A DNA stretch of 64,000 nucleotides, taken from positions 96,001-160,000 of the forward strand of contig JAVLKG010000008.1 of NCBI GenBank assembly GCA_032128875.1, in the 5' to 3' direction. The translations under genes and the position numbers were made by a program. Position 1 is the stretch's first letter; every line of letters starts with the position of its first letter. Below the pieces are notes generated by a model. The model saw only the letters and a list, made by a program, of their open reading frames with translations. It was not told the origin of the DNA and made no database searches. The stretch comes from Candidatus Melainabacteria bacterium 17Bon1m (GTDB lineage: Bacteria; Cyanobacteriota; Vampirovibrionia; Obscuribacterales; Obscuribacteraceae). This document shows, in pieces, positions 43,333-59,433 of the stretch.

Positions 43333-44169
43333 TCAGATGCTGACTGCCCACTCGGCAATCTGCGTCAGAGTCGATTCGCCGCCGGTCTTCGGAGTCGACG
43401 CGCCCCAGGCGATGGCGTGTGCGACCACCTTCGGGAAAACATCGACGATGTCGGACGAACGCGCGTAATTGCGACCGGAGATGACAGCATTCGCGATGCT
43501 GGCATTGAGCACGTTGTGGGCGACACGAGGGCTGGCACCGAGTCCGAAGGTGGGCATGATGCCGATGCTGACTCGCTCCATGAACTCGACCGTGTCGGGA
43601 CGAGTGCCGCGAATAGCCTTGTTGATGCGGTTCGTGAAGGCCTCGTCGATGCTGTCGAGAATCTCGGCGTGCGCGGCGCGCATGTAGGCGATGTTGTCGG
43701 GGTTGAGCCCGTCAGCATCGATTACCGTGTCGAGCAACGCTTTGGCTGCCGACGGAGAATGCGAGCGCAGATCGAGCGAAACGACCAGACGACAGCGTAC
43801 GCTCTCGGGCAATTCCGTGCCCGCAAGCAGCATGACCACGTGAGCGCTCATCTTCGAATCGTCGACCGCGATGGCATTGACGATGTGGCAGAGCGGGTCG
43901 ACCGAGGTGATGACGTTGATGGCCTTGCCGTCGTAGGCGCGGCACAACGTGCGATTCGGAAGCGACCGTTCGACAAACGACGAAGCCTCGACAGCCTGCC
44001 AGCGCAGATCGTCGTCGAGGAATTTCACCCAGCCGGGACCGGGGCAAGCAGGAACATCGCGCTCTTCGCCAGTGACCACCAGTAACGGCTGGTTGGTGAC
44101 CAAGGAAAGAAGGAGGGCATGGCGCACGGATGCAGTCTTCATGACGTCTTCAGCGACAGACGTGAACAT
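43333..44169 (-). CDS. Degenerate MoxR-like AAA+ protein (no Walker A)
   Basis: ELPESVRCRL; lid GASPRVAHNVLNASIANAVISGRNYARSSDIVDVFPKVVAHAI. Confidence 0.7.
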   Translation of the reverse strand: MFTSVAEDVMKTASVRHALLLSLVTNQPLLVVTGEERDVPACPGPGWVKFLDDDLRWQAVEASSFVERSLPNRTLCRAYDGKAINVITSVDPLCHIVNAIAVDDSKMSAHVVMLLAGTELPESVRCRLVVSLDLRSHSPSAAKALLDTVIDADGLNPDNIAYMRAAHAEILDSIDEAFTNRINKAIRGTRPDTVEFMERVSIGIMPTFGLGASPRVAHNVLNASIANAVISGRNYARSSDIVDVFPKVVAHAIAWGASTPKTGGESTLTQIAEWAVSI

Positions 44170-44257
44170 TCACAGTCCTCCCGGGACATGTTGCGGAGCA
44201 GGGAAAAGCTCCTGGGAATCAAAGTCTATGAAGGTAGTCGTGCAGTCTGGTCGAACT

Positions 44258-44281
44258 GGGAAACGGGCGGACCCGTTTCCC
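44258..44281 (-). repeat. UNCG-capped hairpin, copy 2
   Basis: GGGAAACGGG-TCCG-CCCGTTTCCC. Confidence 0.8.
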
Positions 44282-44313
44282 TTTCGCGAAAGCAGGTGTG
44301 AAGTACCGCCGAC

Positions 44314-45126
44314 TCAGTCGTTGAGCGACCACTCGGCGATCTGCGTCAGAGCCTGACGATAGCCTTTCGTCGGGGCTCCGTCCCAGTTGATGCGGTGGGC
44401 GATGACCGACTCGACGAGGCGGACGACGTCCTCCTTGCCGAACTCGGTTTCACCACGAACAGCAGCGGCCGCGCAGCTGACGTGGAAGAGGTCGTGGTAG
44501 CAGCGGTCCGAGGGACCGTTGCCGAACGACGTCGCGAAGCCAGCCTTGACGCGCTTGCCTTGCGGCTCGGTGCCTTCCTTGAGGGAATGCACGAGGTCAC
44601 CGATTTGCTGGCGGAAGCGATTGCCCAGGCGAGCGGCGGTGCCGGCGTATGCCTTCAGCTTGAAGATGGCTTCGTCGCTGAACTCCGGACCTTCGGTCAG
44701 GAAGTTGATCAGCTCCACCACCGCAGCCGGCGGCAGACTGGTGGACAGCGAGATGCAGGCGCGTTCGCGGAAGCCGTAGGGAAGCGGCGGAACTCTGTCC
44801 GAGCGAATGTCGAGCAACACGGACTGGCCGAAGGGGGCCTCGGGCTGTGCCGGCAGGTCGTCGTAGTTGGTGACGATGCCGATCTTCTTGCCGAGCAGTT
44901 CGCGGTCGAGGTAACGCGGCTGGGACGCCGAGGTGTCGTCGGCCCGGACCATCTGGTGCGCGAAGTTGCGATTCAGGATGATCTTATTCGGCTTGTCCAG
45001 CACATACGGGACGGAGCCTGCGCTGCCGGTCTCGATGTGGACGGACTTGTCGGTGATCATCGCGATCAGAAGCAGACCCTTGAGTGCACGGGCGCTGGTG
45101 ATGAACTGAGAAGTAGTGTTGTACAT
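44314..45126 (-). CDS. Degenerate MoxR-like AAA+ protein (paralog of 43333)
   Basis: PLPYGFRER; lid GPSDRCYHDLFHVSCAAAAVRGETEFGKEDVVRLVESVIAHRI; shared LTQIAEW end. Confidence 0.7.
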   Translation of the reverse strand: MYNTTSQFITSARALKGLLLIAMITDKSVHIETGSAGSVPYVLDKPNKIILNRNFAHQMVRADDTSASQPRYLDRELLGKKIGIVTNYDDLPAQPEAPFGQSVLLDIRSDRVPPLPYGFRERACISLSTSLPPAAVVELINFLTEGPEFSDEAIFKLKAYAGTAARLGNRFRQQIGDLVHSLKEGTEPQGKRVKAGFATSFGNGPSDRCYHDLFHVSCAAAAVRGETEFGKEDVVRLVESVIAHRINWDGAPTKGYRQALTQIAEWSLND

Positions 45127-45184
45127 ACTTGCAGTCTCCATGGACTTTGTTGAACAGGATGGTTTCTTTGAGGGATATGCAAGC

Positions 45185-45210
45185 GGGGAGACGGGCGAAC
45201 CCGTAACCCC
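45185..45210 (-). repeat. UNCG-capped hairpin, copy 3
   Basis: GGGGttACGGG-TTCG-CCCGTctCCCC. Confidence 0.75.
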
Positions 45211-45244
45211 TATTCGTTAGCGGGCGAGCAAAACCCGCTTCAGC

Positions 45245-45913
45245 TCAGGCGAAGCGCTTGGCGTCGTCGGCGTCCATGATGACGTGCACGGAGGGCGTGC
45301 CGCCGGTCGGACGGAAGAAGAGCTGCGCGACGTGGTTGCCGGCGGCGTCGAAGAGCTTGCTCACGAACACGTTGTCCGTGTTGCGGAACTCCCAGCCGGC
45401 GGGCAGGATGACGTCGTTGTACTGGTAGCGCTCGCCGACGAACCGGACGCCCAGCTCGACGAGACGCTCGCGACCGCCTTCGTTGATGCGACGCGCCAGA
45501 CCGAAGGTGCGCACGCCGTCGGAAACGACCGGAGCCGGTGCGCTGCGCTCGGCGGTGAAGGCGGGGACCACGTCGGCAGCAGCCATCGGGTCGTCCTCCG
45601 TGAGGAAGACGTGGATGGAGCCGCAGCCGCCGGCGGGCTTGTAGAAGATCTTGGCGATCATCTTGCCGTCGGCGTCGAAGAGGCGCTTCTGCCAGGGGCT
45701 GACGCCGGAGTCGCGGATTTCCCAGCCGGCCGGCACTTCGCACTCGGCGAACTGGAAGGCGCGGATCGCATAGGCCTTCTCGCCTTCGGCGGTGAGCTTG
45801 GCGCCCAGCGCGAAGAGCTTGTCCCAGCCGCCTTCGTTGGCGCGCACCGGGAAGGAGAGGATGGTGGCGCCAGCGGTGGCGGCGGCGGCAATGGCGATAG
45901 CAGTGTTGGTCAT
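45245..45913 (-). CDS. Hypothetical protein with a tandemly duplicated domain
   Basis: VPAGWEIR..LFDADG..AKIFYKP / LPAGWEFR..LFDAAG..AQLFFRP. Confidence 0.85.
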   Translation of the reverse strand: MTNTAIAIAAAATAGATILSFPVRANEGGWDKLFALGAKLTAEGEKAYAIRAFQFAECEVPAGWEIRDSGVSPWQKRLFDADGKMIAKIFYKPAGGCGSIHVFLTEDDPMAAADVVPAFTAERSAPAPVVSDGVRTFGLARRINEGGRERLVELGVRFVGERYQYNDVILPAGWEFRNTDNVFVSKLFDAAGNHVAQLFFRPTGGTPSVHVIMDADDAKRFA

Positions 45914-46064
45914 ATCAGAACCCTTCGAAGTTGAGTTGACTTGAATTGAAGACGACGAAGCGTCAGCGGCTCAGTGAGCAGCTTCCGCTTCCATTGCAGG
46001 CACGTTTCGGTGAACGCCCGTAGGCGGTCACCCATGGTCGGAAGCCGGGCAGCCGGAGAGCTGC

Positions 46065-46400
46065 TCAGTTATCTTTCAAAAAACCCTGCCGTTCCCATTC
46101 GAGAACCTCTTCACGAGGAAAACCGTGCTCCAAGTGGAGCAGGGCACGGTTGCTGGTCTCGATCGGAACGTCCAGTTTCACACAGCGGCGCCGGTGATGC
46201 TCGGAATACGCTTCCTCCACTGTCGTTTCCTTCGGCATGCCGTATTGGCGAGCGAGTAAACCGGCGTACACGATACGCATGTCCGCGCCCCACTCGCGCA
46301 ACTTCTCGCCAGTAGGACAAAGTGGCTTGAGCGCCCGCTCAAGCTCTGCTCCAGAAAGTTGCTTTTGCGGTCCGAGAATCCTGTCGATGATGTTCTGCAT
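46065..46400 (-). CDS. Hypothetical protein
   Basis: GAAGGA RBS then MQNIID. Confidence 0.65.
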   Translation of the reverse strand: MQNIIDRILGPQKQLSGAELERALKPLCPTGEKLREWGADMRIVYAGLLARQYGMPKETTVEEAYSEHHRRRCVKLDVPIETSNRALLHLEHGFPREEVLEWERQGFLKDN

Positions 46401-46471
46401 TGCGCAGTTCCTTCTGCTTGAGAATTTCAAAACGGCAACTATTTGCCGTTCTGCCTCATTTGTGCAGTCGG

Positions 46472-47035
46472 TCAGTCGGAGCTGTCGGCGCCCCACTTGG
46501 CGAAGTCGATGCGATGCCAGAGCCCGGTGCGCTCCAGCAAGGCGACGACCTCATCGTAGCTGCGAATCTTGTCGGATTCGTTGTTGATGCAGGCACGCGC
46601 ACCCGAGTAGTCGCCGCGCCGCAGGCTGTGGACGACCGTGCGGACGCAGCTGATGCCGCGCCCTTCGTTCGCCTTCGACTGTAACTCGTCGAGTTTGTCG
46701 GCGAGCGCCTTCGCCTCGTCGATGTAGACGAGACGCGGGATGCGCACCTCCTCGCCCTCGGGATAGTGATACTCGAGCACGACACCGGCGAGTTCCAACG
46801 AGACACGCTCGTCGCAAAACTCGGACTCGTCATGCGGAGCGATTTCCAGAAGGCTCGCCTGAGCGCACTGGCGATAGCCTTCCGGCTTGGCGCGCAGATA
46901 CTGCATCACCACCGCGCCGACGATGCGCTCGCTGGCGTTGACGATGATAACGGCAGTACCATTGCCACCTTCGCCGCGGCAACGCACGGCGAAAGTCTTG
47001 CGAGCGTTTTTATCGGGACGATCCGATTTCGACAT
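46472..47035 (-). CDS. Hypothetical protein
   Basis: AAGGAG RBS then MSKSDR. Confidence 0.75.
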   Translation of the reverse strand: MSKSDRPDKNARKTFAVRCRGEGGNGTAVIIVNASERIVGAVVMQYLRAKPEGYRQCAQASLLEIAPHDESEFCDERVSLELAGVVLEYHYPEGEEVRIPRLVYIDEAKALADKLDELQSKANEGRGISCVRTVVHSLRRGDYSGARACINNESDKIRSYDEVVALLERTGLWHRIDFAKWGADSSD

Positions 47036-47116
47036 CTCATTCTCCTTGGAGAGACGCACAAGGGGGCGAGGTGCCCCCTTGCACAGGTTGTGGCGGAAAC
47101 GCGTCCGGCAGCCGAA

Positions 47117-48217
47117 CTAGGCCGCCTTGCGGAGCCGATGGATGAGGTCCTCGTAGGCGCGGACCTTCTCCTTCAGGTCGGCAGCCTGCGCCGCCAGAGC
47201 CAGCTCGTTGGTCTCGAGCTCGCCCATGATCGCCACCGCGCGATCGACCTCCTCGACCGAGTAGGCGAAGTGGCGGGCCATCTCGGCGTCGCTCTTCGCG
47301 TTCTTGGCCGCCTCGAACTCGGCATTCACCGCGGTGCGGCGCGTGTCGAGATCGTCCTTGATGACGGCGAGATGCGAGTTCGCCTCGGCGTCCTCGGCCT
47401 TGCCGTCCTTCGCGTAGCGCTGCTTGAGACGCCCATAGGAGAGCGTGTCGAGCTGGAGCTGCTGCTTGGCCGCGGTGGCGGCGTCGAAGCGCTTCTTCGC
47501 CGCAACGAACTCGACCGCCGCCTCGCGATCGCGCTCGCTCACGCCCTTCAGGTCCGCCGCGAGCTTGTTGTTGCTCTCCTTGAACCCGTCGATGGCCACG
47601 AGCACCGCACGCATCTGGTAGGCGAGCGCGACGGCATTGCTGTCGGCGAGACCGGCGCGCTGGGCGAACGCGAACTGCACGTTGCCGAGGTCGACCTTGG
47701 CGATGGGCGTGAGCCAGGCGGTGGCCTGCTCGTACGCATCGCCGCCGGGCGCGAAGATGTAGCCCTGCTCGAACATCTTCTCGGCGACGGGGTCCGCGGG
47801 CGGGGTCTCGGTCGAGGGACCGAAGGACCACACGCGCGGCGCCTCGTTGTGCGAACGGTCGTCGCGCTTCGAGCGGTCACCGTTGTGGCGATCGCCCTTG
47901 TTGCGGTCGTTGCCCTTGCGCTTCCCGTTGTTGCCCTTGCCGTGCTGGTCCTTGCGGTCCTGCGAGGTGTTGGGCTTGCCGGCGGCGACGGGGCTCTGGT
48001 AGTCGGCGGGCTGCTCGACCTTCTCGATGCACGTCAGGAAGAACACCGTCTTGGTCGGGTTCTCGCCGCGGATGAAGACGCGCCAGAACTCGCCGGCGTT
48101 GGGCTGCGAGCTGCGCTTGTCGGGGAACGCGATGCGACCCTGAACGCGAGCCTCGGACTTCACACCGCGGTCGGCGGCAACGAAACGCACAACGAAGGAG
48201 TTATTCGGCTGAGTCAT
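47117..48217 (-). CDS. Hypothetical protein: small N-terminal beta domain, basic low-complexity linker, long coiled coil
   Basis: GGAGG RBS; extreme GC3; heptad-rich C-terminus. Confidence 0.8.
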   Translation of the reverse strand: MTQPNNSFVVRFVAADRGVKSEARVQGRIAFPDKRSSQPNAGEFWRVFIRGENPTKTVFFLTCIEKVEQPADYQSPVAAGKPNTSQDRKDQHGKGNNGKRKGNDRNKGDRHNGDRSKRDDRSHNEAPRVWSFGPSTETPPADPVAEKMFEQGYIFAPGGDAYEQATAWLTPIAKVDLGNVQFAFAQRAGLADSNAVALAYQMRAVLVAIDGFKESNNKLAADLKGVSERDREAAVEFVAAKKRFDAATAAKQQLQLDTLSYGRLKQRYAKDGKAEDAEANSHLAVIKDDLDTRRTAVNAEFEAAKNAKSDAEMARHFAYSVEEVDRAVAIMGELETNELALAAQAADLKEKVRAYEDLIHRLRKAA

Positions 48218-48823
48218 AGTAGCCTCCATATCGGTTCATCAGAACCAGGGGTTCAATAGCAGCGCTTCGCGAACGCGAAACACTCGACGCCCAACTTGTT
48301 TCCAAAGCCAAAAACAATCAGTTTCCCAGCACTTGTGTCACTCCGCTGCAGCAACTGCTGCAAGGAAAGTGGCACGAATAAGCGCTGAGGAAGTGATTTA
48401 GACTTGCGTCTTTTAATTTCTGGCGAAAGGAAATAGATGAGTACTTTTAGAAGAACATGAGAGCCGTATAAGATCCTATGAAGTTGGACGTTACAAACAT
48501 TCTTAACGCCGCGTAATAATATTCGACAGGTAAGGCTACCTTGCCTTTCAGGACGCGCGGGTGGCACTTTTGGTGCATCTCAAAACTTTTCTTCGACCTC
48601 AGAGAGTTGCTACAGAGGCCATTTCTTCAAAGACTCTTGAGTTGAACACTGTTCGCGCAACTTGAAGTGGATCTCATTTTTCGATCAAAGTGGTCCAGCA
48701 CTAGATCTAATTCGCGAAACTAGCGTCCACGATTTTGTTATCCACTCTCATACAATGCAATTGAAGTTCATTTGAAACGCGTTCGAACGGCACTGCGGTT
48801 TTCACTAATGATGCGGTTTTTGC

Positions 48824-49132
48824 TCACGAATTGTTCACGGTCGATTCACGCCTTGCAACATACTTTTGCGAACGGTCAGGGAGATTCTCTCGAGATTTTT
48901 CTTCCTGCATAACCTTTTCTCTCATTCGCGTTTCTTCCTTCCAGACCCTATCTCCATAAACCGCAACGGTCGAAATTGACCGCAACTTTTTCTTGCACTC
49001 GTTTGTCGCCAACCGAAATAGCGCGCGGCTGCATTGAGATGCAACATCAGCCGAATGCCGGTGGACACTGAACCACTCTTTCATGACTGCGGCTGTGTCG
49101 CAGTCGTCTTCAACAATCAAAATTTTCGCCAT
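48824..49132 (-). pseudogene. Truncated response-regulator receiver remnant
   Basis: MAKILIVEDD..VMKEWF..HSADVA, then similarity is lost before the phospho-Asp. Confidence 0.45.
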
Positions 49133-49290
49133 GCTCAGATCCTGTGCGCCTCGCGTGGCAACGTCGCGACAGCTGCTACATGGTTTAGTACAGGCATTCA
49201 AAACAGAAAGACGGGAAAAGTCCACGAAGCTCTCGCCTCGTAGACTAATCTCCCGCCTTCTGCCGCCAGCTGCGAACAGAAGCTTAAGGC

Positions 49291-49893
49291 TTACGCCTTT
49301 TCCAGCGCTTCGCGCACCAGGTCTTGCATCATGTCGCCGAGGCGAGCCCAGACCTGTTCTTTCTGCTCATCGGTGAGGCCGTCCCACCACATCGCTTCGC
49401 CGGCAAGGAATGCGGCCGACGGTGGCTCGCCGTTTTTCACAGCGGTGACCACACGCGCCAGTCCGGCGGTGGTGTTGTCGTGAACGTACTGGCGCTGATT
49501 TTCGCTGAGCCCCGCCCACCAGGCTTTGTCTTCATCGAAGACGAAACCTTCAGGAAGTGGCTCTCCGCGCAGAACAGCGTCGACGACTTCACGGATGCGA
49601 GCGCCGCCGACCAGACCGGAGAAGCGGAAGGTTCGCCCGTCTTCGAGTGCCACGTAACCGGTCCACTGCTTGGACACGGGCGTGAGCTCGAGACCGTGGC
49701 CGCAACACGCATTGAGCGTGCCGGGCAGATTGGCAATGCACGGGTCTTGCTGACCCGATGAACATTTGACATTGCAGCCCGCGCACGCGCGCAAGTTGGC
49801 TGCATCGACAAGCACGCCGTCGGCTTGATAGACGACGCCGTGATCAGTTTCTTCGATGACGTGACCGAAGAGAGTATCGACCTTGAACAGCAT
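49291..49893 (-). CDS. Hypothetical Cys/His-motif protein
   Basis: CAGC..DPCIANLPGTLNACCGHG; duplicated WWxGLxxxQ at the C-terminus. Confidence 0.8.
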   Translation of the reverse strand: MLFKVDTLFGHVIEETDHGVVYQADGVLVDAANLRACAGCNVKCSSGQQDPCIANLPGTLNACCGHGLELTPVSKQWTGYVALEDGRTFRFSGLVGGARIREVVDAVLRGEPLPEGFVFDEDKAWWAGLSENQRQYVHDNTTAGLARVVTAVKNGEPPSAAFLAGEAMWWDGLTDEQKEQVWARLGDMMQDLVREALEKA

Positions 49894-49994
49894 AGTCGGT
49901 TTCCCTGTACTTGTTTTGCGAAAGGAAACGGCAAAAGAGCCGGGGTCACCAAATGACTGGTAACGCCCGGCTCTCCGCCTACGATTGCTCCGGA

Positions 49995-50702
49995 CTACTC
50001 CGGCACGTGAACGTCGAGGTCAACGATCACGCGCTCGCCAAGTTCGGCGAGCACTTTGTTCTCCAACACATATTCGCGCACTCCGCGCTGACCATCATGA
50101 CGATGGGTGTAACCATCGCCTGAGAACAGCTCGGTGAGCCGAACGGTGTGATAGAGGAAACGCCTGACGGCAAGAGCGTCGCCCTTGCTTTCCAACAGTC
50201 GCGCCACGGTCATGAAGAGCGGGTCTTTCTGACCGGCGGCATGCACCTCAGCGAAGCTAAAACCGGCTCGCTTCTGCCATTCGGCAAAAGAAGTTTTCTT
50301 CAGCTCGCGGGCAGCGGCATCGACCAGATGTTTTACTTCCGGATAATGCTCGCCGACCGAGGCCAGGACACCATTCCAGGTGGCTGACCGCATGCCCTTC
50401 TGGCGGCGGAATACGACGAGGCTGAACTTGGTTCCGGCAACGACCTCACGCTCGATGTACTCGGCCGTGTGACCAAGTTCGAGCAGCATGTCGAAGCCGT
50501 TTTTGCCAAGCAAGCGCTCGATTCCGCTCGGCCCCATGACCATGGTGACGCGTCTGTCGCGCTCCTCGGCAAGTACCACTGGAGTCTTGCTGCGCGAGCG
50601 GACAAGCCGCGCATACAAGTTTCTCAGCTTGGCCTTCTTGCCGTCGGAACGCTGGCGTTTATCTCCTCCAAGAACCAGTCGTTCGATGGACTTTTGTCTC
50701 AT
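49995..50702 (-). CDS. Hypothetical protein (possible ADP-ribosyltransferase-like fold)
   Basis: AGGAGA RBS; C-terminal LFSGDGYT..GVREYV. The fold assignment is speculative. Confidence 0.75.
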   Translation of the reverse strand: MRQKSIERLVLGGDKRQRSDGKKAKLRNLYARLVRSRSKTPVVLAEERDRRVTMVMGPSGIERLLGKNGFDMLLELGHTAEYIEREVVAGTKFSLVVFRRQKGMRSATWNGVLASVGEHYPEVKHLVDAAARELKKTSFAEWQKRAGFSFAEVHAAGQKDPLFMTVARLLESKGDALAVRRFLYHTVRLTELFSGDGYTHRHDGQRGVREYVLENKVLAELGERVIVDLDVHVPE

Positions 50703-50830
50703 TTTGGTTCTCCTGACTCGGACGATCGAAAAGGAGGAAACGCGCAGCAGAAGCCGGACGCCGCCGAGCAACCCGACCTTGCGGTCAAGCTGTTCGAGCA
50801 ACCCCCGGCGCTGCGCAGAAATAGTGACGA

Positions 50831-52102
50831 CTACTTGCCGCCGGCAGTGGAAGCAGCTTCGGCCGGTTTGACCGGCGCGATCACTTCCATGAAAACGGGC
50901 AGGTGGTCGCTGAAGTCCTTCGTCCAGAAGAGCAGGTCGCGCTTCAAAGTCGGGAATGCCGGGATCCAGCATTGCACCGTGAGCCCGTCCATGCCCTTCG
51001 TGAAGAAGCCGTCGAACTGCCCGCTTTCGTTGCGGAACTGGTACGACGGGCGACCGTCGACGACGGGCTCCAGCTTGAAGCCGTAGTCGAAGAGAGGTTT
51101 GGTCTCGGTGGTCGTCGCCTTCTCGAGTGCGGCATTGAAGTCGCCGCCCATGATGATCTTCGTGGTAGGAAGATCCGCGACCGAGTAGTCGACCGCCGGA
51201 CGCGTTTTCTTCGGCGCACCGCCCGTGGTAGCAGCCGAATCGGCAGCTTCCGACTTCGCCTGCCCCGCAGTCGGCGCCTTGCGACGCTGATACGGCGACT
51301 TCTCGGCCTGGCGCTTGAACTCCTCCACCATCTGCTTGTTCGAGAACTCGCGAATGGGGCGGGTCGCATCAGGACCGCCGACGTTGGACTTGGTGTGCAC
51401 GTTGACGAAGTCGTAGACCTCGCCGGTCAGCGTATCCAGCACGCGTTGCTGGATGGCGGGACGCAGCGTGTACTTGAACTCGGGATGACCAGGCACCTCG
51501 AGCAAGTAGTCGTGGTAAACCGCCTTCTTGCCGACGTACTCCAGGCGCGGATGCAGCAACATGCCGCACGCCTGCTCGCGATTGTTGCGATGGCTGGCGC
51601 AAACGCCGTAGCCCGCCGCTTTCGCGATCACCTTGAGCGCGTCGATATTGGTCTCCTGGAAGAGCACGATGTGAGCGCGCTTCACCAGTTCGACCAGAGA
51701 GTCGACGATGCGAGTCGCCTTGTCCTTGGTGAGCAGGTAACCGTTGAAGCTGACCACGACGAGGTTGCCCTCGTAGGTGACGAGCGGACGCTCGCCGATC
51801 ATCTTCATCACGACTTCCTTCACCTGCGCCGGGGACGCAGGCACCCAGGGACGACGACCGCCGGGCTTTTTGGTCTCGCCCGTTTCGTTGTCGAATTCAC
51901 CGCCGGCCTTGCTGGCGATGACGGCTTGCGCAAGCGGATTGCCGGCGGCGGCGAGCTTGGCGATTTCCGCCAGAGTCTCATTCGCCCAGGGCAGCCGATT
52001 GGCTTGAATGCAGGCATCCAGAAGCGCAATCTGCGTCTTCAGGTCACCCGACGTCTTGACGAGAGCATCGCGGACGGCGTCCGCTGTTTCAGATTTGCTC
52101 AT
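50831..52102 (-). CDS. Endonuclease/exonuclease/phosphatase (EEP) family protein
   Basis: VSFN, LFQET, NVHTKS, MGGDFNA, FSDHLPV. Confidence 0.88.
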   Translation of the reverse strand: MSKSETADAVRDALVKTSGDLKTQIALLDACIQANRLPWANETLAEIAKLAAAGNPLAQAVIASKAGGEFDNETGETKKPGGRRPWVPASPAQVKEVVMKMIGERPLVTYEGNLVVVSFNGYLLTKDKATRIVDSLVELVKRAHIVLFQETNIDALKVIAKAAGYGVCASHRNNREQACGMLLHPRLEYVGKKAVYHDYLLEVPGHPEFKYTLRPAIQQRVLDTLTGEVYDFVNVHTKSNVGGPDATRPIREFSNKQMVEEFKRQAEKSPYQRRKAPTAGQAKSEAADSAATTGGAPKKTRPAVDYSVADLPTTKIIMGGDFNAALEKATTTETKPLFDYGFKLEPVVDGRPSYQFRNESGQFDGFFTKGMDGLTVQCWIPAFPTLKRDLLFWTKDFSDHLPVFMEVIAPVKPAEAASTAGGK

Positions 52103-52190
52103 TGACAGTCTCCAATTTCTGGGTGCGCTGTGGCGCGCACCCTCTAGAGCCGCTCTGCGATAAGCTCTGCAGGCGGTTCGACACCCTTCT

Positions 52191-52243
52191 GCAGGGGCGG
52201 CGCAAGCGCCGCCCTGTCAGGGAGCCGCATGCGGCTCCCCTAC
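52191..52243. repeat. Inverted REP doublet
   Basis: GCAGGGGCGGCGCAAGCGCCGCCC plus TCAGGGAGCCGCATGCGGCTCCCCTAC (27 nt identical to 56856-56882). Confidence 0.85.
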
Positions 52244-52261
52244 GAAGGCGAAGAGATGGAA

Positions 52262-53398
52262 TCAAGCGACCTTGAGCTGGCCGCTCGTCTCCAAATGCTT
52301 GCGGAATTTCTGGCACACAGTCTTGTGGTACTGCGTGCAGTCTTCCGCGGGAACCAGCCCGTAGAGGTAAGCGAGCTGCTCCTTCTTGGTCGGCTTGTCG
52401 GTGACAGCCATGAGGGTGGCGACGATTTTGTCGGCGTCATCCTTGACCTCGAAAGGCAGGTCGGCGAACTTCTCTTCGAGCTTTCCTTCAAGCACGCGGA
52501 GCATGATGTAACGCGGATTGAGCTTCTCCTGGATCATCTTGCCGATGTATCCAGCGCACTTGTACTTGACCCGACGGTCAGGCCAGCGCACGACGAAGCC
52601 CTCCTTGTTCTCGAACTCGGGGCGCTTGACGAAAGCCTTGAGCTCATCGATCGACTTGAACTGCCAACGCTCCACGACGCGCAATCCGAGCGTGCCGCCG
52701 ATTTTCGTCAGGTCGTTGTAGTCGAGGTCGAGCAGAGTCCGCTTGCTGTAAGCAGCCAAAAGACAAAACTCCACCTTCCCGGCGTAGTCGAGGATGACCT
52801 GAGTTTCGGGATGGATGAACTCGGCAAGGACGGTCATACCCTTGGGGAACGAATCAGCCCACTCATCCTGCTTTTCAGCGAGGATTTCGTTGGCGATCTG
52901 AGCAGACTTGCTCTCGAACGAACCGCGGGTGGTGGCAATCACCCGGCCGCGATAGTGGAAGATAATCGCAAGGTGCCCATCTTCCTTCACCATCACTTCG
53001 AACGGACCATCGGGCAGGTCCTTGGTTTCGGCGTGCTCGCCGACGTTGAAGAATTTGGGGAAGGGGAAGGCAACGAGCGTGCCACGGCGATCGAAGACGA
53101 TGCCGCGGCAGAGCCGAATCGCTGGCGTCCAGCCGTGCTCGAAAGCATGCAGCGTGACGTGAGCGACTTCGGTGTAGTTGAGTCCGACAAGCGGAAGCTC
53201 GCGATGGAAGAACGGTCGGATCAAGCTGGTGACGGAAGGCATTCCCGTCTCACGCTTGTAGCCGAGGCACTGAGCCATGAACTTTTCGTTCGCAGGGACG
53301 CGCTTCCATTCGTTCCAGTCCTTGGGGCTGGAGACACGATCAGAGACGAGACGAGCGACGAAAGCCTTGAGCTGCTTGAGAGATTCTTTGGTGGTCAT
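52262..53398 (-). CDS. T4 Rnl1-type ATP-dependent RNA ligase
   Basis: CRGIVF, PFPKFFNVGE, KEDGHL (motif I), TRGSF, AEFIHP..VILDY, EGFVVR, RVKYK. Confidence 0.9.
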   Translation of the reverse strand: MTTKESLKQLKAFVARLVSDRVSSPKDWNEWKRVPANEKFMAQCLGYKRETGMPSVTSLIRPFFHRELPLVGLNYTEVAHVTLHAFEHGWTPAIRLCRGIVFDRRGTLVAFPFPKFFNVGEHAETKDLPDGPFEVMVKEDGHLAIIFHYRGRVIATTRGSFESKSAQIANEILAEKQDEWADSFPKGMTVLAEFIHPETQVILDYAGKVEFCLLAAYSKRTLLDLDYNDLTKIGGTLGLRVVERWQFKSIDELKAFVKRPEFENKEGFVVRWPDRRVKYKCAGYIGKMIQEKLNPRYIMLRVLEGKLEEKFADLPFEVKDDADKIVATLMAVTDKPTKKEQLAYLYGLVPAEDCTQYHKTVCQKFRKHLETSGQLKVA

Positions 53399-53630
53399 TG
53401 CGTGTATTCCTTGTGTTTCACGAGTCCGGCTGAAAGCCGAACGAAATTGCGCCCCCGCTTTTTGGCGGAGGGTGCGAAATGCCGATACCCGAATCACAAA
53501 CTGCACAGACCAAACACGCACAAACGGCCGCACACACACTTCCTCAGAAGGCGCATGTTTCCGGTGGGACGTAGGCTGGAATTACAGTTTCAGTGACTCG
53601 TATCGGCTAAGGAATTCTTGAATAGATAGG
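53399..53630 (-). ncRNA. Structured 5' leader of the RNA ligase operon
   Basis: Approx. 125-nt imperfect hairpin (GCCGATAC/GTATCGGC, GAGTCAC/GTGATTC, AAACTGTA/TGCAGTTT) inside an anti-SD stem. Confidence 0.55.
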
Positions 53631-53635
53631 TCTTG

Positions 53636-53665
53636 ACCCTACGCGCGAAGAAGTGCGTCAATCAA
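53636..53665 (-). promoter_or_regulatory. Putative promoter TTGATT-N18-TAGGGT
   Basis: Same geometry as 1905-1934. Confidence 0.45.
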
Positions 53666-53855
53666 GCAACTAAATAGTGATTTGAAAGTTATGCTGGCTA
53701 AAAATTTAGATCTCTTAGCTAGATTTATTCTTTAACGCCCGACATTTTTCTTCGCTTTAGCTTATCGAAGCCAATAAACCAAGCACCCGAGCCAGGACCA
53801 CTGGCTTTCGAGAGCAAGTTTTTAGTAATTCATATAAGGGCAAAAAATATGTTGC

Positions 53856-53894
53856 AAAAAATAAGCGACCTTGCGTCAACTCTGCAAGGTCGCT
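53856..53894 (-). terminator. Rho-independent terminator
   Basis: AGCGACCTTGC/GCAAGGTCGCT stem followed by a U-rich tail on the minus strand. Confidence 0.65.
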
Positions 53895-54044
53895 GAAAAC
53901 GTAGGAGGCAAGCGGTTCTGTCTCTATACGGACGGAAATGATTTCGATTTACCGATTCCGCAAGCACGACCGCTTCCCTCTAAAAGAGATTGAAACAGGT
54001 CAGAACTGTGCCCACGTTTTTATGGTTTTAAGACTGGCGCTCAA

Positions 54045-54191
54045 CTAGGCCACATCTCGGCCGGTGGCCATCTGGAAGATGAACAAGATGCCGCAAAGTA
54101 CGAGCAAGCCGTGAATAAAGCTGCCGCCTACATGGCTCAACAAGCCAATAAGCCAAACTGCCAACAAAATGGTGATCAATGTATAAAGCAT
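54045..54191 (-). CDS. lmo0937-family small membrane protein (48 aa)
   Basis: MLYTLITILLAVWLIGL..GGSFIHGLLVL..TGR; GGAGG RBS. Confidence 0.85.
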   Translation of the reverse strand: MLYTLITILLAVWLIGLLSHVGGSFIHGLLVLCGILFIFQMATGRDVA

Positions 54192-54663
54192 TAAATGGAA
54201 CCTCCGGTGTTTCAATCTCTCGTCTGCTGTGAGGACTGGAGAGCATCTCGGAAGTTCCCTATCCACTTTTTGGCGGCAAACACATACCGCTTTCAGGCTT
54301 GCCAGGAAGTTTAATGTGAGAAAGCACCGGAATGGCAGTCAAAACGCTTGTTGACGGACAATCGCCCATTGTTCGCGTGCCGCCGAAAGTTTAGCTTTGA
54401 ATTATCTCTTTCCTTCAATCTCGCGACGGATTCCTGCACAAGTTCACGCCCTGAAACCCTTGCACTTAAATACTTTCGGCACTGACGCCGAATATTGAAC
54501 AAGGTCCTCAGAAAAATGAACGGTCGGCACAAATCGTCCATGTAATTTGTGCAAGTGCTGGTATCCATTTGAATGCTGCGCGAAGGCGATGGAATGCCGG
54601 TTCGAGATAACACTCGAACCTAATCTTTATGCAAGAGCCGGAAATTCCGGCAGTAAGGACGTT

Positions 54664-56814
54664 ATGAGCAACCTTGAACATCGTGAAGAAAATGGCGGTG
54701 CGAATCTCACACCGCCAGAAGCCAACCAACCGCAATCGTGGCCCAAGAAAGTACTGATGTACTGCATCGTACTGCCCCTGGTGCTCTTCTGGGAGACAAC
54801 CAAAGGACTCTACAAACGCACCTATGAGAACGCCGAGACCGGCGCCGCCAACTTGATGAATCTCTTCATCGGCGTTGTCCTCTCTCTCATCGCCGGCATC
54901 TGTATGGGCTACAAAATGGGCTGGAGTGCCACTCCCGCTCCTCTCACCACCTGGCTTTCAGCAGCCGTCGGCGCCGGTGCCGCGATGTTTTTCTATGGAT
55001 GGACCTTATCGAATGTGGTGGTGTTCAAGTACGTTTCCAGAGGGTCCAAATGGCTCTGGCAAAGGGTCAACATCTCCGGCCAAGAGTATGAGGCAAACCC
55101 AGAAGGGCTGAACAACCCGGCCTGGTTGTCCTCATTCCTTATCCTGGCAGCCAGAGTGGTGATCATGATGCTGACAGTCGCTGTTGTTTATATGTTCGTG
55201 GTGCACGTCCAGGGACATCAAAACATCTACGGCGTGCTCGGCTATTTGATAGGGTTTGCTTCAGTCGTCGTCGGCTTGGTTGCGGTGATCTTTATCATCC
55301 TGTGGACAGGGCGCAACATCGGCGGATTCTTGGCATTCCTGATGATGGTCTTCATCCTTCTCATGATGATCTTCAACTGGACAGACACGGTATCGTTATT
55401 GGTGGCACCCTATAACGGTCTGACGGCGGCAAAGTGGGGCGGTTGGGGCTTCCTTCCCGGACTTGTCCTCGGCGGAGTCGCCGGCGTCCTTTTTGCAAGA
55501 TTGTTGTGGAAACTGCTGAAAGCGTTCGGCGTTCCGCTGATTGCTGTCATATGCAGCGCAGCCGGCACTTACTTCCTTTTGCCTGCAACAACTGCATGGC
55601 TGAACGGCTTTGCTCACCGTCCATTCGACGCGGCGCTCGTACCTTACATGGCGGCGGTTGTGGAATTCTTCGTACTGGTCGGGTACGTTTTTCCGATCTT
55701 ACACATCGGCATAACGCACTCGCTCAAACATCTGGAGAACATCACAAAGCTGATGGACTCGGTGTATCAAGAGGAAGAAGGCGGATATCGCGAATTCTTC
55801 TTGATGGTCCTTACGCTTGCCGCAACGCTGGCAGTCGTTTGGTATACGCCCTCGCTGCTTCTTGCCTATGTTGTTACTAAAGCATGGCAGGCATACGCAA
55901 TCACAGCGGTCATCGGCATCGGCGCCTACACGCTCGGCGGAAGCTGGCTGTTGCGAATAGGTGTATTGCCATTCGCAATGGTCTGCGCTGCCGCCTTCGG
56001 CTTCCAGGTATACGACGATTGGAATGCGCATGATCTCTGGTTTGGCATCGGCGGCGCCATCATTGTCGGCGTCATCGGTGCAGCCGCGACCATCGCCATC
56101 ACCTTCCCGCTCGCATATATTCTCATCCGCAAATCAACCGAAGGTTGGCTCGCCTCGGCGCTGCGCAACCCGCTGGTCAATCTCCATACCCGTATCTGTG
56201 ACGGCATCGCCCGTTTTGTCACAGAATTCTTCCGGGCGGCACGCAACACTTACGGCGATGCAACGCCTTTCCGCGAGACCTTCCAGCAACTCGCCAACAT
56301 CGCTTTCACGGTTGCCGCCACTTACGCCTCCTGGAGCCTTGTGACGATCTACGGATTTGCTCTCTGGCTGGGGATTGTCATCATGGCGGCAATCTTCGTC
56401 CTTGCCTATACTCTTGTCGGTCAACTCTTCAAGAAAAAGGGCAACGGCTATCTCGGGCTGCTCGCCGCCATTGTAGGTGGTGTCTACATCGGCATCATCG
56501 TGCACGGCGCACAGCCGCTCGGCTACTGGCTCTCCGTTCCTGGTGCGCTGATCGGCGCAGCTCTGACGGCGGGCGCGTTTTTCCCGTGGGCATATCTGTT
56601 CTTGCGCTTAGCACTGAATGCGCTATCACAAGAAAAATGGTTGCACCCAGCGCTGGTCAACGCTCACTCAACGGTCTGGAACCGTTTTGCCAACCTCCGG
56701 GAGGACTTCCTCAAGACCTACCGGCAGGTGCGCGATTCGGTGACTCTCATGAAGGAAAACTTCTGGCGCACGTATGAAGAAATGCGCGCGCAGATCTTCA
56801 AAAACCGGAAGTAG
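54664..56814 (+). CDS. Large polytopic membrane protein with internal repeats
   Basis: Many TM helices; recurring (T/V)Y(E/Q/G)..RE.F and FP.(A/L)(Y/H) units. Confidence 0.8.
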   Translation: MSNLEHREENGGANLTPPEANQPQSWPKKVLMYCIVLPLVLFWETTKGLYKRTYENAETGAANLMNLFIGVVLSLIAGICMGYKMGWSATPAPLTTWLSAAVGAGAAMFFYGWTLSNVVVFKYVSRGSKWLWQRVNISGQEYEANPEGLNNPAWLSSFLILAARVVIMMLTVAVVYMFVVHVQGHQNIYGVLGYLIGFASVVVGLVAVIFIILWTGRNIGGFLAFLMMVFILLMMIFNWTDTVSLLVAPYNGLTAAKWGGWGFLPGLVLGGVAGVLFARLLWKLLKAFGVPLIAVICSAAGTYFLLPATTAWLNGFAHRPFDAALVPYMAAVVEFFVLVGYVFPILHIGITHSLKHLENITKLMDSVYQEEEGGYREFFLMVLTLAATLAVVWYTPSLLLAYVVTKAWQAYAITAVIGIGAYTLGGSWLLRIGVLPFAMVCAAAFGFQVYDDWNAHDLWFGIGGAIIVGVIGAAATIAITFPLAYILIRKSTEGWLASALRNPLVNLHTRICDGIARFVTEFFRAARNTYGDATPFRETFQQLANIAFTVAATYASWSLVTIYGFALWLGIVIMAAIFVLAYTLVGQLFKKKGNGYLGLLAAIVGGVYIGIIVHGAQPLGYWLSVPGALIGAALTAGAFFPWAYLFLRLALNALSQEKWLHPALVNAHSTVWNRFANLREDFLKTYRQVRDSVTLMKENFWRTYEEMRAQIFKNRK

Positions 56815-56828
56815 ATCCTTCCACAAAG

Positions 56829-56968
56829 GTAGGGGAAGCGCATGCGCTTCCCTGCTCAGGGAGCCGCATGCGGCTCCCCTACACTCGTAAGGGGTCGGCG
56901 CTCCCCTACACTCGTAAGGGGTCGGCACTCCCCTAAACTCGGAAGGGAGTCGAGCATGCGGCTCCCTT
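56829..56968. repeat. REP cluster plus a 27-bp tandem repeat (x approx. 3)
   Basis: GTAGGGGAAGCGCATGCGCTTCCC, an inverted REP, then CTCCCCTACACTCGTAAGGGGTCGGC(G/A) at 56874, 56901 and degenerate at 56928. Confidence 0.9.
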
Positions 56969-57143
56969 CCTTTTTGAAAAACAGCTACTACACGTTTTAA
57001 TATCAACCGGTAACGCTTTGATAACAACTTCTCCCTAAGTTTTCCCTATCTTGGCAGTAGCCGCCGATTCAGATTCGCGGTGGCAAACATCTTTCGATTA
57101 TCGGATTCTCAAGCGACACGCTCGCTTTCACGGAGCAACTTAA

Positions 57144-57728
57144 ATGGCTATTCATGAGAGTTTTGCCTTTCATCCACAACCCGACGAAGCTTTGCATTCG
57201 ACCCCTCAATGGCATTTAGAACTCCAGCAAGACGCACAACAGAAGCGCAATCCGGGCACGGTTGTTGAACGCGCAGCCGAACAAACAGTAGATCAGGCGC
57301 GAAGAACCGTAGAACAAGGGGCACGTCAAACGGTTAGAGAAACCCAACAAAATGTCAAAGCGGCGCGCGAACGTGCAGAAATCGCAACATTCCTTGTGCT
57401 GAATTTCGACCAGATAGATGGTTCAAACCGCACCAAAACTCGAGACGGGAAGATTACCCGCAACGAGATAATCGACTTTAGAAAAGATCATTCAACATCG
57501 CTAACATCAAATGAATTGCGAACTCTCGATGTGGCGTCTCGTGATTTCGCAACGCAGATCGGTCGCGGAAAGACCGGGGTTAATAGGGCGGATATAGAAA
57601 CATACAAGGTCTCACCACCTGTCATAATTCGTCGACCAACTCAAGCAGAAGACGAAGGTCTCGACGACAAAATCAAAGACAAAGCAAAAGGAATTTGGAA
57701 AGGAATTCGCAGACGCGTAGGCGACTAG
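57144..57728 (+). CDS. Hypothetical protein with a degenerate EF-hand-like motif
   Basis: GGAG RBS; NFDQID..DGKITRNEI. Confidence 0.7.
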   Translation: MAIHESFAFHPQPDEALHSTPQWHLELQQDAQQKRNPGTVVERAAEQTVDQARRTVEQGARQTVRETQQNVKAARERAEIATFLVLNFDQIDGSNRTKTRDGKITRNEIIDFRKDHSTSLTSNELRTLDVASRDFATQIGRGKTGVNRADIETYKVSPPVIIRRPTQAEDEGLDDKIKDKAKGIWKGIRRRVGD

Positions 57729-57778
57729 CCTCCCAAATCGAACTACCGCGCAATTGTTTTAACCGGTAAACGCAAAAA

Positions 57779-59047
57779 TTAGGAAAACGGCGTCGTGACA
57801 ATACGACAGTAAGGAAGCGCTTTGCGAAGTAAATCCAAACCTCGCTCGCTAACCTTTGTTTGCGCAAGGTTTAACTCAGCAAGATTATCCATCTCGGCAA
57901 GTGTTTCCACTGCCGCATCAGTAATTTTCGTGCTGAAAAGATTGAGGCGAACTAGTTTTCTCAATCTCTTCAATGATGGTATGGATGCATCAGTAACGCG
58001 GGTTTCCACCAACCAAAGAGCTTTCAGCCCAAGAAGTTTTTCCAGCGAAATAACACCATAGTCACCCACCTTAGTATCGTTGAGCGAGAGAAGTTCGAGC
58101 CTGTGAAGCGGCTCCAATCCCTTAAGGAAGTCATCTCTGACTCCGGTATCAGCCATCCATAAACTGTCGATGGCAGGGAGTTTTCCGATTGATGCAAGCC
58201 CGGCAGCAGTCAACGGCAAACGGCAGATGCAGAGCATTTCCAGATGTTTCAAGGACTCGATCCACTTCATGTCCTTGCCTGCCACCTTAGTGTTGGAGAG
58301 GCAAAGTCTTTCCAGACACGAAAACTTACTCAGCGCTGCGGCAGTTTTATCATTTACCCTGGTGTCTTCCAAGTGCAAATTGGTAATCGGCAAACCGGAA
58401 AGCGACTCGAATGCTTTTCCCTCGAAAGGGCAGCCATCCAAACGCAACTCTTTAAGAGTCGAAAGCCCTTTCAATTCTTTGACGGCATCATCATTGATGC
58501 GGGTTTCATCAAAGTGCAAAACCTCGAGAGCCTTCATTCCGGCGATCACTTTGATACCACTTTTGGTGACAGTGGTTCCGGCGAGTTTCAAAATCTTGAG
58601 ATTCTGCAACCCCTGCAATTGCCGCAATCCGAAGTCAGTTACTTCAGTGTGTCCCAGATCCAGTTCTTCGAGTTCTGAAAGTTGTGCGACGTGATGCAGT
58701 GCATCATCACCAATGTCCGTGCCGCCCAATAGAAGGCGTTTCAACCCGGTAAGCCCACTGATGTTTTTCAGCTCAGCCGGTTTGACACGGGTGCACGTGA
58801 AATTGAGAGAGCGCAAATCATCCGCTGCGAGCTGTTTTAGCGGTTCCAGATTTTCTGAGGCCGTCCAGCTGACCATCAAATCCAGAGGCTTTTCATACGG
58901 CGCAGAAACATCGCCCGCGGCTTCAGAGTAAAACTCCTCGACACCGCGTTCATCGGTCGTGTACAAGTGTCCGAAAGAAGTGTCCGCGGGAAAGCGGATT
59001 ATTCTGCCGTCTTTGTTGTTTGAAGTTTGCGCCTTCGCCTCAGGCAT
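57779..59047 (-). CDS. Leucine-rich repeat protein (24-aa repeats)
   Basis: LxxLxLxxTxVTDxGLxxL repeated more than 10 times. Confidence 0.93.
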   Translation of the reverse strand: MPEAKAQTSNNKDGRIIRFPADTSFGHLYTTDERGVEEFYSEAAGDVSAPYEKPLDLMVSWTASENLEPLKQLAADDLRSLNFTCTRVKPAELKNISGLTGLKRLLLGGTDIGDDALHHVAQLSELEELDLGHTEVTDFGLRQLQGLQNLKILKLAGTTVTKSGIKVIAGMKALEVLHFDETRINDDAVKELKGLSTLKELRLDGCPFEGKAFESLSGLPITNLHLEDTRVNDKTAAALSKFSCLERLCLSNTKVAGKDMKWIESLKHLEMLCICRLPLTAAGLASIGKLPAIDSLWMADTGVRDDFLKGLEPLHRLELLSLNDTKVGDYGVISLEKLLGLKALWLVETRVTDASIPSLKRLRKLVRLNLFSTKITDAAVETLAEMDNLAELNLAQTKVSERGLDLLRKALPYCRIVTTPFS

Positions 59048-59404
59048 CGAAAACCCCAGAGAGCCCGTATCCCAGTATCCAATAGATTACACGCCAGTCG
59101 GTAACTCGCGCAAAATAGATGTTCCCGGCAGGATGGAAAACATCTCTCTTGATTCGATGTTTTTTCCAGGAAGAAAAACAGACACGCGCCAGGTGCTATT
59201 GGGGGGGGCTGCAAGAGAAGCAATCTGAAACGCGCTTAAGGCGCCAGGCTACGACCTTAGCGGGGCTAAGAAACGATGCCAAGACCTCCTAGCGACGACG
59301 CGCTAGGTTTTAACTGCCAATTAAGCGTTGTTCAGGTCGCCCATTTAATAAGCTTTCGAAGAGTTATTGCGTCCAAGACCTTAGCAGACAACTGGTTACA
59401 AGGC

Positions 59405-59433
59405 TTGCTTCCAAGGCCATTCTTCTTCAGGGT
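59405..59433 (+). promoter_or_regulatory. Putative promoter TTGCTT-N17-CAGGGT
   Basis: AGGCTTGCTT shared with 1901; AGGGT shared with 53636. Confidence 0.35.

Follow-up and report, generated by a model that had tools for sequence, protein, structure and literature searches.

The window analysed here is a stretch of 64,000 nucleotides (nt) from the genome of Candidatus Melainabacteria bacterium 17Bon1m (G000:C8:96001-160000), a member of the Obscuribacterales whose assembly amounts to 7.55 Mb and is 93% complete. On its minus strand, between 49291 and 53539 if the open frames are taken at their full extent, lies a run of four open reading frames, the first two of which encode an RNA ligase of the Rnl1 family and a phosphoesterase of the EEP fold. 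This pair of genes, together with the two that follow it, is the subject of our analysis. The set of genes and their order, the ligase followed by the EEP protein, are as claimed in a preliminary description of this DNA, and the cluster consists of the following features:

52262..53398, minus strand: Rnl1-family ATP-dependent RNA ligase, 378 amino acids (Pfam PF09511, PHROG 562, T4 Rnl1 structures)
52103..52261, minus strand: spacer between the ligase and EEP genes, with three GC-rich hairpins (sequence, fold)
50831..52102, minus strand: EEP-fold metal-dependent phosphoesterase, 423 amino acids (Pfam EEP, fold, invariant catalytic residues)
49995..50702, minus strand: protein of 235 amino acids without a Pfam match, with a probable ADP-ribosyltransferase (ART)-like fold (structure model)
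49291..49893, minus strand: protein of 200 amino acids with a Cys-rich N-terminal half (no family match)

The ligase, previously claimed to be an Rnl1 enzyme with intact motifs, scores well above the Pfam cut-off for RNA_lig_T4_1 (PF09511; E-value 2.4e-21, 77 bits against a cut-off of 28.3), matches PHROG 562, the T4 Rnl1 family, at 9e-40, and aligns with the T4 Rnl1 structures (PDB 2c5u; E-value 5.5e-13) in such a way that its KEDG falls on the KEDG of T4 Rnl1. The nucleotidyltransferase motifs comprise the KxDG lysine of motif I, the EGxxx of motif IV and the KxK of motif V, and all 18 aligned orthologues share, without exception, residues K138, D140, G141, E193, E266, G267, K278 and K280; the earlier assignment thus holds for both the family and the motifs. 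We took the ATG at 53398 as the start of the gene; the open frame reaches upstream to a GTG at 53539, and the orthologues align from residue 1 with the same Met as their start. On the other hand, the protein obtains only 49.9 bits with TIGR02308, the equivalog model of RnlA, against a cut-off of 242.25, and its sequence therefore marks it as a divergent member of the Rnl1 family rather than an RnlA equivalog. The characterised members of the Rnl1 family join RNA.

The second protein passes the Pfam EEP threshold, if barely. It belongs to the EEP superfamily by its fold and its active site is complete: N120, E150, H236, D321, N323, D364, D399 and H400 do not vary among the 15 family members aligned, and all of these residues other than H236 make up the metal-binding and catalytic Asn, Glu, Asp, Asn, Asp and Asp-His set of EEP enzymes. 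Residues 1-110 form a conserved helical extension with a disordered linker (59-82), and the catalytic domain spans approximately 111-412, which bears out the N-terminal extension of about 100 residues noted previously. Its nearest structural neighbours are, among others, the exonucleases PDE12 and CNOT6L together with the nuclease DNase I, and the top structural matches also hold Nocturnin and a Bacteroides mannosyl-6-phosphatase; the structural ranking does not separate CCR4/ANGEL-like enzymes from TDP2-like or DNase-like ones, and a phmmer search of the PDB sequences returned no match at E-values up to 1. A prediction of a complex between the ligase and the EEP protein scored 0.00, which gives no verdict either way. 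An exhaustive profile search of 1.84 billion representatives recovered no more than 111 relatives (E-value ≤0.001).

The preliminary description had named the co-occurrence of Rnl1 and EEP across genomes as a check on their pairing, and the pairing turned out to be conserved well beyond this genome, in several genera of the Obscuribacterales. Among species-representative genomes, 9 of 12 EEP loci carry an Rnl1 orthologue immediately upstream of the EEP gene and in the same orientation, the other three being one locus cut 178 nt upstream and two without a ligase. Among the EEP loci from metagenomes, several of which duplicate genome loci, the ligase is present in 10 of 15, with three loci cut and two lacking a ligase. 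All these loci come from one bacterial order, and the counts are not independent, being inflated by shared ancestry. Across 107 genomes of the order, a ligase orthologue was found in 21 (E-value ≤1e-100), plus one decayed copy, and an EEP orthologue in 15; both genes are held by 11 genomes and are adjacent in 10 of them. The gap between the two genes is as short as 14-33 nt in G008, G001 and G029, and the adjacency persists though the flanks differ from genus to genus and accessory genes come and go. In the ligase tree, whose backbone lacks resolution, the EEP-linked genes are distributed over at least four distinct clades, of which three have 100/99-100 support, which argues that the linkage is not a single inherited accident; the EEP-less ligase of G022 is nested among EEP-linked sisters. 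Within the genus the cluster is patchy: in G012 (G012:C213, L006) the ligase is followed after 112 nt by the gene for the 235-residue protein, with no EEP gene; in G004 (G004:C24, L094) a remnant of the ligase (residues 1-113 and 345-377, with stop codons) sits beside an intact gene for the 235-residue protein; and G011, 93% complete, has neither ligase nor EEP. We conclude from these comparisons that the pairing is conserved, though not universally.

A second line of evidence comes from the domain architecture of the EEP relatives. Of the 51 homologues recovered by a word-index search, 20 are proteins of 595-682 amino acids that contain AAA_33/KTI12 kinase domains, and the kinase-carrying relatives include P0018, P0039, P0037, P0022 and P0106. 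The fused kinase is N-terminal, with the P-loop GLPASGKS, and is succeeded by the same helical extension and then by the EEP domain. Its 14 best matches in the PDB are all polynucleotide or tRNA kinases, headed by a 171-residue chain of 4gp6 (7.6e-6) and including PSTK, T4 Pnk, Pnkp1 and mammalian PNKP, while no small-molecule kinase occurs among its PDB matches at E-values up to 0.01. The 171-residue chains of the 4gp6 type, which we take to be the kinase domain of Clostridium thermocellum Pnkp, present SDFCR opposite RDAIR of the fused kinase in the best-match alignment (the D-x-x-R motif). In P0106 (707 amino acids), which is among the 111 relatives of the profile search, the EEP domain shares one chain with both an intact HAD phosphatase (DRDGV, CxCRKP and GDxxxD) and a kinase, and in P0051 it is joined to a HAD-like domain that lacks the nucleophile. 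The EEP family has, as judged by these sequences, repeatedly been joined to both halves of a Pnkp-type enzyme, and the fusions tie it to polynucleotide end processing without fixing the reaction of the EEP domain itself; where a HAD domain is present, the EEP domain may add a third activity, such as that of a cyclic phosphodiesterase or 3' trimming and deblocking. The EEP protein of the window (423 amino acids) has no kinase in the same chain and is not itself a bifunctional enzyme of the Pnkp type, but it could function in the manner of a split Pnkp. Longer EEP fusions (742-2115 amino acids, e.g. EEP-ligase) were looked for and none was found, which is weak evidence, and the one genomic copy of the fusion, the kinase-EEP gene of G095, is cut at the contig end. 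As a separate observation, G031 encodes an intact HAD phosphatase of the GmhB/HisB type (DRDGV; L019:11535-12272) 1.5 kb upstream of the ligase, on the ligase strand and with one gene between them, which is 36% identical to the HAD-like C-terminal domain of P0051.

The preliminary description had emphasized that no Pnk accompanies the ligase. This is correct for the window, in so far as none of the 17 matches to the AAA_33 kinase across the genome lies on contig C8, but it does not apply to the genome, which is well supplied with genes for RNA repair and has a canonical Hen1-Pnkp pair, RtcB and stand-alone AAA_33 kinases. Hen1 (473 amino acids, Hen1_L plus methyltransferase) is followed by Pnkp (849 amino acids) at G000:C2:9855-13822 (L110:1856-5823), the latter comprising an AAA_33 kinase, a metallophosphoesterase and PNKP_ligase (E-value 9.7e-177). 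There are also two tandem genes for RlaP, an RNA-repair-associated nucleotidyltransferase of the Pol-beta type (PF10127, E-values 1.4e-39 and 5.3e-50) at G000:C4:353934-355642 (L111:5935-7643), adjoining a gene of the isochorismatase family. Among the stand-alone AAA_33 kinases, the best, on G000:C23, is 41% identical to the fused kinase, so a kinase is available in trans. Moreover, a second Rnl1-like gene is found approximately 106 kb beyond the window (G000:C8:265629-266465; L023:5703-7619, minus strand), encoding 638 amino acids with a ligase and a C-terminal region of about 300 residues. The syntenic gene in G002 and G018 encodes 1078-1104 amino acids with a kinase, a metallophosphoesterase, an Rnl1-like ligase and the C-terminal domain, and we conclude from the comparison that both healing domains have been lost from the gene in this genome, and also in G007 as far as the length of the frame tells.

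The two remaining genes of the cluster have a looser connection to the pair. Neither the 235-residue nor the 200-residue protein has a match in Pfam, NCBIfam, PADLOC or PHROGs; the family of the former comprises 52 clusters without Pfam domains. The structure model of the 235-residue protein is confident (predicted local distance difference test score, pLDDT, 91.2) and probably represents a divergent ART-like fold with a helical insert. Searches with this protein by Foldseek against the PDB and by profile against PDB sequences returned nothing, the ESM Atlas gave no usable match, no catalytic motif could be assigned, and Tpt1/KptA (PF01885) matched neither the protein nor anything else in the whole genome. 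Its proposed membership in the operon stands in part: the gene is linked to the cluster within this genus but is not linked to the ligase beyond it, and at 5 of 10 loci elsewhere its homologues have Usp and cation-efflux genes as neighbours. On the evidence of gene order it is a genus-specific accessory of the cluster. The 200-residue protein, which has six Cys within residues 37-64, CCGHG included, and which yielded in the Atlas leads below 0.9 only, to small phage proteins, had been counted as a Cys/His member of the operon. This is not supported: homologues with 47-66% identity occur unlinked in many genera, in 23 of the 107 genomes in all, and adjoin the cluster only in G000, G007, G008 and G002, all of this genus. 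Judging from this distribution, it is probably a bystander.

In the Obscuribacter-type clade another accessory, a basic protein of 267-277 amino acids without a known family (here termed ins267), is encoded between the ligase and the EEP protein. It accompanies the ligase in G022, which has lost EEP, and accompanies EEP in L049, which has lost the ligase. The genome under study yielded no copy of it, and a profile search of the PDB with ins267 gave nothing. A relationship between ins267 and the 235-residue family was considered and rejected (hhalign probability 0.2). In the Obscuribacter genome G113, a locus approximately 18 kb downstream of the ligase (L102:5919-10853) contains within 5 kb a paralogue of the 235-residue protein, a gene of 168 codons resembling ins267, and a gene of the RlaP family (PF10127, E-value 2.3e-6); it is a second co-occurrence of the two accessory families with an RNA-repair marker. 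Immediately upstream of the ligase and in its orientation, Obscuribacter-type loci (L037:2943-7104 and L049:4660-8764) carry a Prs-like gene of the phosphoribosyl pyrophosphate synthetase family and a gene for a nicotinamide adenine dinucleotide (NAD) synthase of 968-985 amino acids fused to an isochorismatase/nicotinamidase-like domain, and N-terminal sequences suggest that G024 and G029 have this gene pair ahead of their ligases as well. These neighbours could mean that the module is linked to the supply of NAD.

The regulatory features once ascribed to the cluster fared less well than its genes. A single promoter and a leader locking the Shine-Dalgarno sequence had been predicted, but a sigma-70 scan of 48800-54600 gave no site on the minus strand, and the leader of 181 nt folds no better than its shuffled versions (z -0.69). 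The spacer of 159 nt between the ligase and EEP genes does fold strongly (-81.6 kcal/mol, z -4.4). However, its first hairpin (window 52220-52239) is a copy of a genome-wide palindrome resembling the repetitive extragenic palindromic (REP) elements, a GC-rich 20-mer (GGGAGCCGCATGCGGCTCCC) that has 116 sites in the genome at ≤2 mismatches, compared with 0 for the reversed control. A second copy in the window lies at 56859-56878, with tandem units also at about 56880-56940, and the assembly contigs of four sequencing runs all break at both copies. The palindrome is missing from the spacers of G008 and G001, which are only about 19 and 33 nt long, respectively; the shortness of these spacers indicates that the repeat is a secondary insertion, and a hairpin that is dispersed genome-wide and missing from these relatives is no feature of the operon. 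The idea that the ligase might circularise structured RNAs found nothing in its support, the structured spacer being one of about 116 dispersed repeat copies. As for expression, three public runs labelled as RNA-Seq (X2-X4) contain the entire stretch, but over window positions 44000-60000 their depth is flat and their contigs are the same as in the DNA run from that sample; for this organism they behave like DNA libraries.

Other features of the locus can be noted briefly. The intergenic spacers along the cluster are 159, 128 and 101 nt, i.e. the genes are not tightly packed. Scans of the window with Rfam and for tRNAs returned nothing, no signal-peptide-like hydrophobic stretch was seen by eye at the N-termini of the proteins, PADLOC had no match for any of the four, and in PHROGs the ligase alone was matched. 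No relative of the EEP protein or the ligase was found on viral contigs. Divergently from the ligase, at 54547-56814 of the plus strand, lies a gene for a multi-pass membrane protein of 755 amino acids without a family match, which is conserved beside the cluster (50% identity) in G008 only.

Taking the gene pairing and the fusions together, we propose that the cluster is a split Pnkp-like heal-and-seal module for broken RNA, chromosomal and specific to the Obscuribacterales, a reading to which we give a little better than an even chance. We infer that the EEP protein would be the end-healing activity of the module, or an extra one, and also that its substrate is RNA, which end is attacked, and that the proteins cooperate. 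In the proposed scenario, a ribonuclease or a chemical break would leave a 2',3'-cyclic-phosphate or 3'-phosphate end and a 5'-OH end. The EEP protein would clear the 3' end to 3'-OH, either by phosphoesterase action as in ANGEL2 or by trimming of the blocked nucleotide; a P-loop kinase, fused to EEP in the relatives and acting here in trans, would make the 5'-phosphate, candidates for this role being the stand-alone AAA_33 kinase of G000:C23 and the kinase domain of Pnkp; and the ligase would seal 3'-OH to 5'-PO4 via ligase-AMP and AppRNA. In vitro, the human EEP protein ANGEL2 processes 2',3'-cyclic phosphate ends so that a 5'-3' RNA ligase is able to join them (PMC9931718), and this precedent renders the end-healing chemistry of an EEP enzyme plausible. 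Fusions such as those of EEP with a Pnk-like kinase, in one case together with HAD, are what would be expected of a new end-healing partner. The earlier suggestion of a new heal-and-seal pairing is therefore sustained as regards the conserved pairing and the EEP-kinase fusions of the relatives, but it needs amendment in that the EEP-HAD-kinase fusion leaves room for EEP to add a third activity rather than to replace the 3'-phosphatase.

Several observations weigh against this proposal. P0106 already possesses a HAD phosphatase, so that EEP need not be a 3'-phosphatase, and this HAD domain has the CxCRKP loop of the GmhB/HisB type, which is also found in sugar-phosphate phosphatases. The ligase and EEP genes of G068 sit on different contigs; the ligase occurs without EEP in ten genomes (G012, G006, in which the contig ends inside the ligase, G022, G123, G124, G031, G108, G024, G097 and G018); and EEP occurs without the orthologous ligase in G023, G034, G095 and G096, which include the clade nearest to the kinase fusions. 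In G095 the only Rnl1-family ligase, 30% identical, is on another small contig that carries neither EEP nor kinase. The metagenome scan returned no kinase-fused copy of EEP, which leaves the gene neighbours of the fusions out of view. The genome already has Hen1-Pnkp and RtcB, so that there is no a priori need for another repair system. Finally, the activity and the substrate of the module are predictions from its genes, and the RNA-labelled runs, flat like the DNA run, show nothing on transcription or co-transcription.

Alternative explanations have to be considered, and they differ mainly in what the EEP enzyme is thought to do. It could be a nuclease (a 3'-exonuclease, a deadenylase or an endoribonuclease), in which case the pair would constitute a cut-and-rejoin system of RNA processing or resemble a toxin and its antidote. 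PDE12, CNOT6L and DNase I are among its closest folds, and EEP nucleases leave 3'-OH and 5'-PO4 ends; these are substrates of Rnl1 that require no kinase, which would explain an operon without one. However, such ligatable ends would make the fusions with a 5'-kinase and with HAD pointless, none of the four proteins is matched by the defence models of PADLOC and the cluster was not found on viral contigs, and we regard this possibility as improbable. The same fusions can be turned into an argument for the cleaning of DNA, or of nucleic-acid ends in general, with EEP acting like APE1, ExoIII or TDP2 on blocked DNA ends in company with a PNKP-like HAD-kinase and a ligase: the combination of EEP, HAD and kinase in P0106 mirrors eukaryotic APE1 or TDP2 plus PNKP, and mammalian PNKP appears among the PDB matches of the fused kinase. 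We nonetheless find this unlikely, given that the linked ligase is of the Rnl1 family, known for RNA joining, that we noticed neither DNA ligase nor Ku nor a polymerase in the neighbourhoods scanned, and that the best matches of the kinase are RNA-repair kinases and PSTK. It is also conceivable that the neighbours are unrelated, or that the substrate of EEP is a small molecule (NADP(H), as for Nocturnin), a sugar phosphate or a lipid, the adjacency being inherited synteny. Nocturnin, an NADPH 2'-phosphatase, and the Bacteroides mannosyl-6-phosphatase are among the top structural matches, NAD-metabolism genes neighbour the Obscuribacter loci, the HAD domain of P0106 is of the GmhB/HisB type, the common ancestry of loci from a single order inflates their counts, and the spacers here measure 100-160 nt, with no promoter found. 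Against this, the adjacency survives differing flanks, with ins267 placed between the genes in one clade and absent in another, the ligase and EEP genes are 14-33 nt apart in three genomes, and the fused kinase resembles polynucleotide kinases most closely; we consider an unrelated or small-molecule function very unlikely.

It is tempting to bring the 235-residue protein into the scheme, by analogy to the NAD-linked pathway of Trl1 and Tpt1: EEP would open the cyclic phosphate, the ligase would seal, and the ART-fold protein would strip the 2'-phosphate from the junction or (de)modify the end by ADP-ribosylation. In G012, where EEP is missing, the gene for this protein comes directly after the ligase; its Obscuribacter paralogue is near RlaP and ins267-like genes; Obscuribacter-type loci carry the genes for the Prs-like protein and the NAD synthase-nicotinamidase immediately upstream of their ligase; and canonical Tpt1 (PF01885) was not found in the genome. 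On the other hand, the protein offers no assignable catalytic motif and is linked to the ligase in one genus only, having Usp and cation-efflux neighbours at half of its ten loci elsewhere, the NAD genes are outside this window, and the Obscuribacter-type loci carry a different and unrelated accessory, ins267. We hold such a pathway to be quite improbable. A broader and likewise doubtful extension of our proposal would be that the Obscuribacterales evolved a new EEP-type class of end healing with Pnk (split here, and Pnk-EEP or EEP-HAD-Pnk elsewhere), a dedicated Rnl1-type ligase and, in this genus, an ART-fold enzyme that uses NAD on the repaired RNA, either as an analogue of the Trl1/Tpt1 system or in RNA ADP-ribosylation.

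The putative split module resembles several known systems without coinciding with any of them. As in the tRNA repair pathway of phage T4, an Rnl1-family ligase depends on a kinase and a phosphoesterase to provide 3'-OH and 5'-PO4 ends, and T4 Pnkp has its P-loop kinase N-terminal to the phosphoesterase, in the same order as the Pnk-EEP fusions of the relatives. However, the phosphoesterase of T4 Pnkp is a DxDxT HAD enzyme, whereas here it is of the EEP fold and without a kinase in the chain, the window ligase scores far below the equivalog level of T4 RnlA, and the T4 system belongs to a phage while the present module is chromosomal, bacterial and not found on viral contigs. The Pnkp-Hen1 system of Clostridium thermocellum and Pnkp1-Rnl-Hen1 are bacterial heal-and-seal systems with a kinase of a type homologous to the fused one, whose best PDB matches are the 171-residue chains of the 4gp6 type and Pnkp1 (4xrp); they use a calcineurin-like metallophosphoesterase, PNKP_ligase and the Hen1 methyltransferase, whereas the Rnl1-EEP cluster has no Hen1, and a Pnkp-Hen1 system is present separately in this genome, on G000:C2. 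Human ANGEL2, of the CCR4 family, and the 5'-3' ligase RLIG1/C12orf29 offer another parallel, with the CCR4-family proteins PDE12, Nocturnin and CNOT6L among the top structural matches of the window EEP, but no relationship to ANGEL2 is detectable at the sequence level (phmmer, PDB, E-values up to 1), RLIG1/C12orf29 and the window ligase represent different families, and the human genes are neither linked nor fused. In fungi and plants, Trl1 combines an Rnl1-family ligase with a kinase and a cyclic phosphodiesterase, and Tpt1 is an ART-fold NAD-dependent finisher; here an ART-like protein, by a weak assignment, follows the cluster. The phosphodiesterase of Trl1 is, however, of the 2H family, and Tpt1 belongs to PF01885, which matches neither the 235-residue protein nor the genome. 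Lastly, mammalian PNKP with APE1/TDP2 provides the same set of EEP, HAD and P-loop kinase as P0106, but it acts on DNA together with DNA ligases, while the ligase linked here is of an RNA-ligase family.

The known RNA heal-and-seal systems clear 3' ends with HAD, metallophosphoesterase, HD or 2H enzymes. To our knowledge, human ANGEL2 is so far the only EEP-fold enzyme shown to act in healing, and it has no genetic tie to a ligase or kinase. In the literature that could be searched, we found no paper connecting EEP/PF03372 in bacteria with RNA ligases, polynucleotide kinases or RNA repair, and none on an RNA ligase in Obscuribacter, the survey of Burroughs and Aravind (2016) lying outside that scope. 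Heal-and-seal repair itself is well known; what appears to be new here is the genetic tie of a predicted EEP healing partner to both a Pnk kinase and an Rnl1 ligase. Comparative genomics supplies this tie in bacteria, through the conserved adjacency to Rnl1 and the direct fusion to a Pnk-type kinase, and it singles out a small and directly testable set of proteins: EEP alone, Pnk-EEP and EEP-HAD-Pnk.

The patchiness of the cluster even in this one genus, where sister species have lost it or keep decayed remains, would mark it as an accessory function related to conflict or stress, in a bacterium that already has Pnkp-Hen1, RtcB and RlaP. If the proposed activity is true, EEP would become the fifth phosphoesterase fold in RNA repair. 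It would also suggest that EEP enzymes were recruited convergently in bacteria and animals, and would provide a new end-polishing enzyme for work with RNA.

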